The position numbers and the translations under genes are program-made. A DNA stretch of 64,000 bases, taken from IMG/VR virus record IMGVR_UViG_3300035505_000313, positions 1-64,000 of that record; one strand, written 5' to 3'. How positions within the stretch are numbered: position 1 is the stretch's first letter; each line of letters starts with the position of its first letter. Positions 6,197 through 24,518 of this stretch are shown piece by piece. The notes under the pieces were generated by a model. It made no database searches. It saw only the letters and a list, made by a program, of their open reading frames with translations, and was not told where the DNA came from. This stretch comes from a virus (taxonomy: Duplodnaviria > Caudoviricetes).

Positions 6197-6290
6197 GAGA
6201 GATTAGACATAAATCTAATCTCTCAAAATAAAAAATCGTAAAATGTTAAAGTATAAATAGATATTATCGCTATAAAAACAAGTAAAATTA

Positions 6291-6341
6291 CAAAGACGAA
6301 AGTCGGAAAGGACCACCATATGTCCAATGGTGGTAACAGGT
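6291..6341 (+). ncRNA. structured 5' leader (GNRA hairpin + H-type pseudoknot), copy 1
   Basis: CAAA-GAC GAAA GTC-GGAAA-GGAC-CACCAT-AT-GTCC-A-ATGGTG-GTAACAGGT; covarying second copy at 24352..24401. Confidence 0.65.
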
Positions 6342-6347
6342 GTAGTT

Positions 6348-6572
6348 ATGGTGGATAAATTTAATTTTTATGTAAATCTCGCAAACGAGATTTACGAGGT
6401 AACTGGTAGTATGGGTTCTGGTCAGTTAAGTGATTGGCTGAAAGACCAGAATCCAAGAGCGATTGATATCGCTCTTTCTATCATGGAGGTAATCAGAGAT
6501 AAGGGCAGTTACACTGATTTAGCTCCACGAATCAGTTCCGTAAGGCAACTGATGCATGAGTTATACCAGTAG
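6348..6572 (+). CDS. hypothetical early protein (74 aa; start revised from 6327 to 6348)
   Basis: The ATG at 6327 lies inside the leader stem; the ATG at 6348 follows AGGTG and matches the position in the second leader copy. Confidence 0.6.
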   Translation: MVDKFNFYVNLANEIYEVTGSMGSGQLSDWLKDQNPRAIDIALSIMEVIRDKGSYTDLAPRISSVRQLMHELYQ

Positions 6573-6582
6573 TAGCATAAGC

Positions 6583-6641
6583 TACACAAACAGAATAAAC
6601 ATTAGTTTTTCTGTAACTAATAACAAGGTTTCTTTTTTTTT
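6583..6641 (+). repeat. conserved ~58 nt 3' element / terminator, copy 1
   Basis: TACACAAACAGAATAAACATTAGTTTTTCTGTAACTAATAACAAGGTTTC-T(n); one mismatch to the reverse complement of 23956..24015. Confidence 0.85.
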
Positions 6642-8589: not shown

Positions 8590-9155
8590 AAAAAAAAGAA
8601 TTAAAAGGAATTGGAGAAAGACCATAAATTAAGCCTTTCTCCAAAATACGAAAAAATAATTTCATTACTCCCTAATAAAGGAGAGCTTATATAAAAAGAC
8701 ATTGGACCTATCATGCAAAAATCCTTTATTTGTCTTTTTACCAAATTTAATTGCTGGCATAGAATTAGATAGTCGGAAGTAGATATCAGTATTACATATG
8801 AAACTCTATCAAGTCCTATACCAGCATGAAAGTGTTGTTATTTTGTTTGCTAAAAGCTTAGAAAGTTAAATAGAAGGTGTTATGGGCATAATATAATTAT
8901 GAAAAGAACCCATTGCTATTAGACCTTCTAAACTTTTTATACGCAAACTTTAAAAAAGCATCCTGTTTTTACAAGCAGAAACAGTTATACACATAGTATT
9001 AAAGAACAGGAAAACTTTTATACCAACTGTTTCTGCTTCGTGTGGATTTGGAGGAACAAAAACCGCATCCACACACAAATATAATTCAGAGATGAGATAT
9101 AGAGAAAGCGTACTAGCCGACACACACAATGCTAATACATTCCCTCTAATCTCAC
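8590..9155 (-). ncRNA. putative early non-coding RNA made of ~7 tandem hairpins
   Basis: ORF-free; TATATTAT promoter at 9160-9167, terminator at 8611-8644 with A8 run; stems at 9091-9155, 9039-9075, 8973-9038, 8862-8936, 8753-8825, 8693-8739, 8668-8685. Confidence 0.6.
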
Positions 9156-9159
9156 TATA

Positions 9160-9177
9160 ATAATATATAGATAAAAA
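9160..9177 (-). promoter_or_regulatory. early-type phage promoter
   Basis: TTTTATCTATATATTATT, identical over 18 nt to the motif at ~14779-14796. Confidence 0.65.
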
Positions 9178-15737: not shown

Positions 15738-15810
15738 CATAAATACCCTGTCTTTCGACATATTTATCTACCTCAGTAAAGGGATTAGAGTACACCATAA
15801 ACATGTAGTA

Positions 15811-16704
15811 CTACTTCTTTTTACGAATTGGAAAAGTATAACCCTTCTCAAGTAATATATCTTGATGGTATTTTCCTACATTAATATTTACTATTGTCTT
15901 TCTTGGTATACCAAGCCTATCAGCAATTTCTCTATGTAATAACGATGTTGTCTTTAATAATTCTGCTGTTTTTAAAACTTGGTCTTCTGTAAGATGACTA
16001 AAACATTTCTTTCTAATTGGATAATCAATACCATCTAAATGGTATGTATCACCTTCAGAAATTTTCTTAATTGTATTAGGATGACAATTAAATTTATTTG
16101 AAATAGCCTTATAACCCAAATCTGAATTCTGAAGTAAATCTATAATTTCAAATATTTGGTCTTCGCTAAAATTAATTTGCTTATTAAAGCCTTGTTCTCT
16201 AATTGGATAATCAATATCACTATAAAACCAAGTTTCACCGCAATTAATATCACTAATCATTTCTCTAGTACAATTAGGGAATTTCTTAGCAATATCAACC
16301 ATAGATAAATCAGTCTCTTTTAGATATTTTCTAATTTTAGCAACTTGCGTCTTTGTTAATTTAACTGTATGAGTAGTTTTACCTCCCATATTGGAGTTAT
16401 ACCCATCTTCATATGAGTTATATTTTCTAATATAATATACCTCTTTCTTATTTAATTCTTTTTCAGGTATATCATCTTCCAATACTTCCCATTTAAAGTT
16501 TTCAGCTCCTAATTTTCTAATCATCTTATAGAACATAGAAAAATACGTATGGTCATTTTTGTTTAAAGCAGATTTTAAATGTTGAGTTTTCCTAGCTTCT
16601 AAATTATTTAGGGTTTGCCCAATATAAACACCATGAATAATAGTGTCTTCTGCTTTGTAAATTAATCCTTTTCTTATTCTTTCCATAGTTAAATCTACCT
16701 CCAA
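15811..16704 (-). CDS. intron-encoded GIY-YIG homing endonuclease
   Basis: GLIYKAE...VYIGQT, LNKKEVYYIRKYNS, three C-terminal HTH-like repeats; lies between the intron R and S elements. Confidence 0.88.
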   Translation of the reverse strand: MEVDLTMERIRKGLIYKAEDTIIHGVYIGQTLNNLEARKTQHLKSALNKNDHTYFSMFYKMIRKLGAENFKWEVLEDDIPEKELNKKEVYYIRKYNSYEDGYNSNMGGKTTHTVKLTKTQVAKIRKYLKETDLSMVDIAKKFPNCTREMISDINCGETWFYSDIDYPIREQGFNKQINFSEDQIFEIIDLLQNSDLGYKAISNKFNCHPNTIKKISEGDTYHLDGIDYPIRKKCFSHLTEDQVLKTAELLKTTSLLHREIADRLGIPRKTIVNINVGKYHQDILLEKGYTFPIRKKK

Positions 16705-23438: not shown

Positions 23439-23957
23439 ATGGCTATTAATCTAAGTACAAGTTTATTCTCTAATCTTAAACCTGTGGATTTAAGTAATTA
23501 TAATAGCTCAAGTGGTTTTGTAACATTAGATGATTCATTAGAAGATGCTGAAGATAATAAACTTAACTTTATGAAGATATCTCATAAAATCAATTATGAA
23601 GATACAATGACAATGTATGATGAGAATATCTTATATAATTATAGAAGTTACTTATATGACTTTAGAATTGGATTAGAGATTACAGAAGATTATTTCTATA
23701 AACCTGAGTTAGTATCTCAAGAATTATATGGAACACCAGATTTATGGTATTTAGTAATGTGGATGAATGAAGAAATAGCTAGTCCATTAGAGTTCAATAA
23801 TAGATATATCTGGGTATTTGACCCTAGTAAAATTAATGTATTGAATAAGTTGATTGAGTGTAATAAAGAAAAGCTTGAAGATAATCATTTAGAGCCAGAT
23901 TATGTTGAAGACTTGACTATAAAACCAGTAGTATTGAGTTCTTCTAGGTTCTTATAA
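23439..23957 (+). CDS. baseplate wedge protein (T4 gp53/LysM-like)
   Basis: YKPELVSQELYGTPDLWYLVMWMN motif. Confidence 0.7.
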   Translation: MAINLSTSLFSNLKPVDLSNYNSSSGFVTLDDSLEDAEDNKLNFMKISHKINYEDTMTMYDENILYNYRSYLYDFRIGLEITEDYFYKPELVSQELYGTPDLWYLVMWMNEEIASPLEFNNRYIWVFDPSKINVLNKLIECNKEKLEDNHLEPDYVEDLTIKPVVLSSSRFL

Positions 23958-24015
23958 AAAAAAAAGAAACCTTGTTATTAGGTACAGAAAAACTAATGTT
24001 TATTCTGTTTGTGTA
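23956..24015 (-). repeat. conserved ~58 nt 3' element / terminator, copy 2
   Basis: Reverse complement matches 6583..6641 with one mismatch; both begin about 10 nt after a stop codon. Confidence 0.85.
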
Positions 24016-24025
24016 TATTAGAGGA

Positions 24026-24346
24026 TTATGCTCTTACTAAATCCTCTAATACACTAAAAGTTTCACTCTGAAGTTCCTTCAGAGTCTTCCAAGTTCTTGG
24101 AAGAACCTCCTTAGCTTCGAAGAACTCAACTGTTGACTCATTGAGTTCTCCGAAAAGTTCATGACCTAAACTAAAGTCATGTTCAGAGACTACTTTCATT
24201 AACACACAAGCAACCTCTGAATGTAATGTAGCTGATAACATAATATCAACTTCCTTAGTTGTTGACAGACCTGATTGCATCATATTAACTGCTTTCACGT
24301 CTGCTCCTTCAATAGCTACTTTCATCATTTCGATTGTCTTATTCAT
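24026..24346 (-). CDS. hypothetical early protein
   Basis: 106 aa ORF flanked by the shared leader and 3' element. Confidence 0.7.
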   Translation of the reverse strand: MNKTIEMMKVAIEGADVKAVNMMQSGLSTTKEVDIMLSATLHSEVACVLMKVVSEHDFSLGHELFGELNESTVEFFEAKEVLPRTWKTLKELQSETFSVLEDLVRA

Positions 24347-24351
24347 AATAC

Positions 24352-24401
24352 TACCTTTTACATGAGCTGGACTTGCTCATGTCCTTTCCGCTTTCGCTTT
24401 G
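24352..24401 (-). ncRNA. structured 5' leader (GNRA hairpin + H-type pseudoknot), copy 2
   Basis: CAAA-GC GAAA GC-GGAAA-GGAC-ATGAGC-AA-GTCC-A-GCTCAT-GTAAAAGGT. Confidence 0.65.
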
Positions 24402-24441
24402 ATTTGTTTACATGATATTATACTATGTATAATTCAAAGCG

Positions 24442-24449
24442 ATAATATA
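24442..24449 (-). promoter_or_regulatory. early-type phage promoter
   Basis: TATATTAT followed by CGCT, as at 6261-6271 (+). Confidence 0.6.
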
Positions 24450-24482
24450 TAAAAAAAAAAGGTAATTTTACGATTTTAATAT

Positions 24483-24518
24483 AAGAGAGAAATCCTAATA
24501 ATATAGGATTTCTCTCTT
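24483..24518 (-). terminator. intrinsic terminator
   Basis: AAGAGAGAAATCCTA/TAGGATTTCTCTCTT 15-bp stem. Confidence 0.7.

Follow-up and report, generated by a model that had tools for sequence, protein, structure and literature searches.

The window, a stretch of 64,000 nucleotides, is the first 64 kb of a 75.5-kb virus record (G000). Judging from its genes, the source phage is a distant, uncultivated member of the AR9/PBS1-like jumbo phages. The record carries a gene for the N-terminal half of an RNA polymerase beta' subunit of the non-virion type, with 39% identity to the non-virion RNA polymerase (RNAP) subunit of the Bacillus phages Goe21, AR9 and PBS1. The window also encodes topoisomerase II, Dda-like and DnaB-like helicases, and baseplate genes. 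Among these genes lie two cassettes on opposite strands, A and B, each built around a small ORFan gene and a structured leader. Their parts are as follows.

Cassette A:
6199-6226, + strand: stem-loop just 5' of the promoter block, in a PeSL-like position; read directly, with equivalents before B, C, G1a and G5b
6232-6244, + strand: upstream promoter element AAAATCGTAAAAT, 24 nt before ATATTAT; exact also in B, C, G1a and G5b
6261-6273, + strand: core early-type promoter, ATATTAT + CGCTAT; +1 predicted at 6274, by analogy
6295-6304, + strand: GNRA mini-hairpin, 3 bp + GAAA
6306-6311, + strand: GAAAGG purine box, Shine-Dalgarno-like, invariant and adjoining the stem
6312-6334, + strand: leader hairpin, 8 bp, with a 7-nt loop containing GUCCA; from the minimum-free-energy fold and covariation
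6338-6342, + strand: Shine-Dalgarno (SD) sequence AGGTG, read directly; weaker than the AAAGGAGG usual in other genes of the phage
6348-6572, + strand: ORFan gene, 74 aa, with no PHROG or Pfam family
6588-6641, + strand: two-hairpin 3' element + T-run, terminator-like; near-identical behind B, C, G1a and G5b

Cassette B:
24484-24517, - strand: stem-loop 5' of the promoter block
24465-24477, - strand: upstream promoter element AAAATCGTAAAAT
24436-24448, - strand: core early-type promoter, ATATTAT + CGCTTT; predicted +1 is the G at 24435
24417-24433, - strand: small hairpin, 7 bp with loop AUA, where the transcript is predicted to begin; C, G1a and G5a have one too
24383-24397, - strand: GNRA mini-hairpin (24397-24390) + GAAAGG box (24388-24383)
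24360-24382, - strand: leader hairpin, 8 bp, loop AAGUCCA; from the minimum-free-energy fold and covariation
24353-24359, - strand: SD sequence AAAAGGT, read directly
24026-24346, - strand: ORFan gene, 106 aa, with no family and weak similarity only to the gene of copy C
23957-24010, - strand: two-hairpin 3' element

The sequence-only reading had placed two copies of a covarying leader at 6291-6341 (+) and 24401-24352 (-), before two genes. Both copies are there. As it had said, ATATTATCGCT lies 5' of each, and the inner six positions of the stem differ between A and B while each pair remains complementary, so the compensatory change is real. Its general picture of a structured 5' leader beside the SD, 3' of an early-type promoter and before unrelated genes also holds. 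What escaped it was the extent of the repeat and the number of copies. A and B have AAAATCGTAAAAT in common as well, 16 nt upstream of ATATTATCGCT, and their alignment spans the entire intergenic region, beyond the 50-nt core. The order in both is stem-loop, AAAATCGTAAAAT, 16 nt, ATATTAT + CGCT, a variable spacer, the GNRA hairpin, GAAAGG, the hairpin, a weak SD and the ATG. Within a stand-alone cassette of stem-loop, promoter, leader, ORFan and two-hairpin 3' element, the leader is a single module; the larger repeated unit of promoter, leader and 3' element had gone unseen. The two genes said to share the leader do share it, but five further copies had been overlooked, and the total is seven.

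The third copy, C, was found by a pattern search of the whole record. It is at 73306-73366 (-) of the record (L003 1466-1526), outside the window and directly 3' of the gene for the N-terminal half of the non-virion beta' subunit, and its stem is a third distinct sequence that is again self-complementary. A scan of IMG/VR with the promoter pattern led to contig G001, which carries copies G1a and G1b about 500 nt apart. A scan with the conserved 3' element led to contig G005, which carries copies G5a (15770-15831; L346 1501-1562, -) and G5b.

The three contigs look like fragments of one phage genome. A 9.4-kb Logan contig, SRR11793880 (L314), bridges the end of the window's record and G001. G001 and G005 come from a single common sample, and both are without a second topoisomerase gene. 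The CheckV completeness values of G000, G001 and G005 sum to 93%. On the strength of these observations, we treated the three as one genome of ~240 kb, with at least seven copies of the leader in ~237 kb. The assembly breaks may be located at the repeated flanks of the cassettes.

Covariance models recover the copies at 60-80 bits, with E-values of 1e-13 to 1e-17, and the next matches are at or below 21 bits; model R2, built from all seven copies, gives them 60-79 bits. Besides the three contigs, the search with R2 took in two complete relatives (~60% beta' identity) and five cultured jumbo phages, AR9-like or related. No match above 21 bits occurred in AR9 (searched with model R1) or in Goe21, BpSp, phiR1-37, LPJP1 and SA1 (searched with R2). 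In the relatives G002-G004, also at ~60% beta' identity, the element is absent beside the gene for the beta' N-terminal half and elsewhere in their records. Scans of IMG/VR with short motifs and with a tighter leader pattern gave chance matches only, as did a metagenome scan with the promoter pattern, in which all 45 matches were due to chance. Rfam 15 gave no match at gathering threshold in the whole window, in keeping with the earlier statement that the element matches no recognised riboswitch or ribozyme consensus; at E<=10, nothing fell over the element of copy A, and a chance snoRNA match with an E-value of 3.7 fell over copy B. The element is restricted to one uncultivated phage lineage, and the relatives at ~60% identity are without cassettes.

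The promoter block resembles the early promoters of AR9. Those are read by the injected virion RNAP and have the consensus AAATATATATTAT-(6N)-G+1 (PMC5312081). All seven copies have ATATTAT-N6-R, and B and C have the longer TATATATTAT-N6-G, in the form TATATATTAT-CGCTTT-G. By this analogy, the simplest reading of ATATTATCGCT is as the core of an early promoter of the virion-RNAP type (ATATTAT-N6-R), and it is from the same likeness that we infer the early timing of the cassettes, their transcription by a virion RNAP and their start sites. A subset of AR9 early promoters, 6 of the 25 sites examined (L320, L322, L327, L331, L334, L338), has CCGTATTAAA 25 nt before ATATTAT, and the cassettes have ATCGTAAAAT 24 nt upstream of ATATTAT. 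Given this nearly equal spacing, the 13-mer probably belongs to the promoter, as an upstream element, and not to the RNA. Early promoters of the virion-RNAP type that have such an upstream element containing CGTA may form a bipartite subclass. The AR9 late promoter, AACA-N6-TA/G, was looked for by reading the leaders of copies A, B and C and was not found there, and the spacing of hexamers read in copy B does not fit a host sigma-A promoter.

About 15 further intergenic TATATATTAT sites, candidate early-type promoters, are found in the record, examples in the window being 6180(-), 9167(-), 14787(-), 19428(-), 22676(-), 31335(-) and 60580(+). These have short plain leaders and the strong SD AAAGGAGG, whereas the SDs of the cassette genes are weaker. 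Since the other early-type promoters drive plain leaders, the structured leader marks a subclass of the early leaders. The site at 9167(-) heads an ORF-free region, 8590-9167. This early transcript was considered as an antisense partner for the loop of the leader hairpin, and it contains no UGGAC; no enrichment of that sequence was seen elsewhere.

The heart of the leader is the 8-bp hairpin, which RNAfold predicts as the minimum-free-energy fold of A and of B alike. In a model-based alignment of the seven copies, all 8 model pairs covary, with changes on both sides. The fraction of cells that are paired is 96.3%; sliding the 3' partner by 1-3 columns lowers it to 27-35%. The observed covariation score was reached by no shuffle. 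Two G.U pairs are present on the sense strand. The stems range from 7 to 9 bp and the loops from 5 to 10 nt, yet the predicted stability of the hairpin is between -10.1 and -11.7 kcal/mol in every one of the seven copies. As computed by the folding model, such a near-constant stability despite differing sequence and length looks like selection on stability. GUCCA is found in six of the seven loops, G5a being the exception. The GAAAGG box is invariant in the seven copies, with a 0-nt spacer to the first base of the stem, and lies ~36-41 nt from the AUG. The GNRA mini-hairpin (2-3 bp) is less constant and is missing in three copies, namely both copies of G001 and G5b.

The AUG follows the end of the stem at 13-14 nt in all seven copies, whereas the predicted transcription start is anywhere between 28 and 60 nt from the hairpin. 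The element therefore keeps its place with respect to the ribosome-binding site (RBS) and not to the 5' end. The hairpin never sequesters the SD or the AUG in the predicted folds, and the SD region is predicted to be mostly unpaired, with a mean P(unpaired) of 0.54-0.83. The small 5'-end hairpin listed for cassette B could be a 5'-end protector or a part of the initially transcribed region of the promoter. Several other features of the transcripts were considered and set aside. A mini-ORF upstream of the gene, looked for by reading copies B and C, is peculiar to B and hence not conserved. Pairing between the 5' and 3' untranslated regions, judged by eye, comes to complementarities of only ~5 nt. 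Likenesses to the PyrR binding loop, the anticodon loop of tRNA-Asp and segments of 16S rRNA extend over only 5-9 nt, and Rfam gave no PyrR match.

Copy G5a is peculiar. Its flanks and stem are identical to those of copy B, while its loop (6 nt) is the reverse complement of the usual loop. The palindrome has been flipped whole at the DNA level. G5a is a natural loop mutant, and it is also a warning that DNA-level processes act on the palindrome. The RNA of G5a would be nearly fully complementary to the hairpin of copy B.

The element had been described as an H-type pseudoknot, made of GGAC:GUCC plus the six-base X6:X6' helix and acting as a riboswitch-like sensor, with an 8-bp hairpin as the alternative fold. 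The 8-bp hairpin does exist and is the minimum-free-energy fold, but the pseudoknot to which it was to be the alternative is not supported. GGAC and GUCC are indeed complementary in copies A, B and C, and G1a has GGGC, which is wobble-compatible after a 1-nt shift. Yet the GGAC:GUCC helix has no covarying pairs, versus 6/6 for the hairpin helix. In both G001 copies it loses two of its four pairs, GUCC is absent from G5a and GGAC is absent from G5b, so that the helix is broken in G1b, G5a and G5b. Moreover, the AC of GGAC is already paired inside the 8-bp hairpin, and that hairpin is ~6 kcal/mol better than the competing 4-bp hairpin. As laid out on the sequence, the pseudoknot would have to cross its 6-bp and 4-bp helices with an L1 of 0 nt and an L3 of 1 nt. 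Loops of 0 and 1 nt are below the known minimum lengths for H-type pseudoknots, and by these loop-length rules, the structure is sterically implausible. A riboswitch is likewise unlikely: the element consists of one short hairpin and has no multi-helix pocket, the ORFan genes have no metabolic coherence, and Rfam gave no riboswitch at E<=10. We therefore regard the pseudoknot sensor as very improbable. The element is a hairpin, not a pseudoknot or a riboswitch.

The other modules of the cassette show a mixture of strict conservation and complete turnover. None of the seven cassette ORFs (74-200 aa) has a Pfam or PHROG family, and the five that were compared pairwise are unrelated, except for the weak similarity between those of B and C. 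The gene of G1b, at 200 aa (L302 901-1503, -), has no Pfam or PHROG match and contains an HELGH motif, a candidate zinc metalloprotease signature. B and C have an identical 58-nt promoter block, identical 21-nt blocks flanking the stem, an identical loop and an identical 59-nt 3' element, whereas their ORFs, spacer and stem arms are saturated with differences. The 3' element of G1b is diverged but keeps both hairpins, the second of which has changed with compensation. The 3' element has a weak, sub-threshold resemblance in Rfam to the patAB leader (E ~0.5). The leader module of G5a is the same as that of B apart from the flipped loop, and the promoter block and ORF differ. Since the same leader module is found amid different promoter blocks and ORFs, the modules have probably been exchanged by recombination.

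What does the hairpin do? The reading we tentatively prefer, while holding it to be far from assured, is that it is a loop-specific post-transcriptional operator, acting on translation or decay, for a set of early ORFan genes. The argument for this combines a loop that is conserved while the stem covaries freely at a tuned stability, a fixed site by a weak SD, reuse before unrelated genes, and absence from the many other early leaders. The hairpin adjoins the RBS at a fixed distance, and the loop is kept while the stem covaries, which is what is expected of an operator recognised through its loop. The mRNA leader would fold into a single hairpin with a stability tuned to about -11 kcal/mol, whose stem would be constrained for pairing alone and whose loop would retain GUCCA. 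The invariant, SD-like GAAAGG would stack on the 5' side of the stem, with the weak SD and the AUG at the fixed 13-14 nt. A putative trans-factor, which could be an RNA-binding protein of phage or host or else a nuclease, would recognise the loop together with the purine box on the helix and would then set the access of ribosomes to the weak adjoining SD or trigger decay. The outcome would be that unrelated early ORFan genes are switched together. Since the hairpin leaves the SD and AUG unoccluded in the predicted folds, any repression must be steric or mediated by the factor.

In favour of this reading, the phage also encodes a non-virion beta' N-terminal half like that of AR9, and the promoter fits the AR9 early consensus. 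Besides the unoccluded SD and AUG, three observations count against it. A Pfam screen of G000, G001 and G005 for homologues of the regulators RegA (PF01818) and CsrA (PF02599) found none. There is a single lineage, so the conservation of the loop could in part reflect shared ancestry or gene conversion. Finally, the flipped loop of G5a means either that the loop is dispensable or that G5a escapes control. A broader picture can be drawn in which a jumbo phage with its own RNA polymerases runs a post-transcriptional regulon: a phage RNA-binding protein or endoribonuclease would read the GUCCA loop on the tuned hairpin beside GAAAGG and switch a portable set of ORFan genes for host takeover on or off together, and the cassette flanks would admit new genes by recombination. 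We consider this picture in its entirety rather doubtful.

The main rival to the operator is a passive cis element that has no dedicated trans-factor. GAAAGG would be a landing site or stabiliser similar to STAB-SD, and the hairpin would be an insulator that keeps the weak SD single-stranded with any ORF in the cassette and blocks 5'-to-3' decay. GAAAGG is complementary to the 3' end of Firmicute 16S rRNA in the seven copies alike, the SD region is predicted to be mostly unpaired, and an RBS that does not depend on context would be useful in cassettes with unrelated ORFs. SD-like stabilisers and the blocking of RNase J1 by ribosomes are documented in Bacillus (PMC5737220). This would explain the box and the portability, but not the loop: GUCCA has been kept while every stem position turned over. 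Furthermore, a 5'-end protector is expected at the start of the transcript, and several copies already have a separate small hairpin there. We think a purely passive role unlikely, although it comes next in rank to the operator.

Improbable, and below the passive role, is that the conserved object is a palindrome in the DNA, kept perfect by template-switch (quasi-palindrome) correction and serving as a recombination point or protein site for the shuffling of cassettes, with the RNA hairpin as a by-product. The whole flip of the G5a hairpin is a DNA-level event, the leader module common to B and G5a amid different promoter blocks and ORFs suggests that modules recombine, and PeSL cassettes act as recombination points in T4-like phages (PMC4122927). 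A DNA palindrome has no use for G.U pairs, which work only in the sense RNA, nor for a fixed distance to the AUG and a tuned thermodynamic stability. Its orientation to the gene is the same in six of the seven copies, and a site in double-stranded DNA would conserve the arms and not the centre. The hairpin might also bridge a split RBS, as in T4 genes 38 and 25, so that folding brings GAAAGG near the AUG and enhances initiation. A strong SD-like box directly 5' of the stem, a weak SD 3' of it and a fixed geometry are what such a site would have. Looping out the hairpin, though, leaves GAAAGG 13-14 nt from the AUG, beyond the optimum, a second SD is present at normal spacing, and the conservation of the loop would again be unexplained; we rate this as slightly less probable still than the DNA palindrome. 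From most to least probable, then, we rank the operator, the passive element, the DNA palindrome, the split RBS and the pseudoknot or riboswitch.

In jumbo phages that have multisubunit RNA polymerases of their own, post-transcriptional control has hardly been studied. The element is compact, fully covarying and of fixed geometry, and it is reused before seven unrelated accessory genes, which makes it a handle for finding a regulator of early-gene translation or decay. The cassettes show a way in which such phages may connect new ORFans to their programme, a role also proposed for the PeSLs of T4-like phages. The promoter, leader and terminator are also compact parts for expression in Firmicute phage systems, taken from one uncultivated lineage.

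Several known systems bear comparison. The operators of T4 gene 43, of the MS2 and PP7 coat proteins, and of E. coli thrS are short hairpins 5' of or at the RBS, in which the loop is read sequence-specifically and the stem needs pairing only, and through which downstream translation is repressed. The layout here is the same, with no sequence similarity. Each of those operators serves one gene, in autoregulation or replicase control, and its protein is known; here, there are seven genes, the factor is putative, and the hairpin does not include the SD or AUG. The STAB-SD and the SP82 polypurine 5' stabilisers of Bacillus mRNAs are SD-like purine boxes in the 5' untranslated region, upstream of the RBS. 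The box of these cassettes always adjoins a hairpin, ~36-41 nt from the AUG, and its stabilising role is putative. For a phage 5' leader structure that exerts translational control, the nearest precedent to the pseudoknot idea is the gene 32 leader of T4 and T2. In that knot, the loops are of sufficient length to cross the stems and both stems are supported, whereas here, the second helix is unsupported and sterically implausible.

The early promoters of AR9 and PBS1 are alike in ATATTAT-N6-R (7/7), in TATATATTAT-N6-G (B and C) and in having an upstream element near the distance of CCGTATTAAA. The AR9 leaders themselves are short and plain, with no real match by R1 in AR9 or by R2 in the five cultured relatives. 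The closest parallel to the cassette as a whole is in the T4-like phages, where the stem-loop and early promoter motifs of PeSL cassettes flank variable ORFans between core genes and where there are signs that modules pass between otherwise unrelated sequences (PMC2839356, PMC4122927). The cassettes described here are likewise composites of a stem-loop and an early promoter around unrelated ORFs, with a conserved 3' element. They differ in that the promoter is of the AR9 virion-RNAP type and not sigma-70, and in the addition of a covarying structured leader and a two-hairpin 3' element. An operator-like leader hairpin within a shuffling regulatory cassette is already familiar in kind. What is new is the motif, its use seven times over, and its occurrence in a phage that has multisubunit RNA polymerases of its own.
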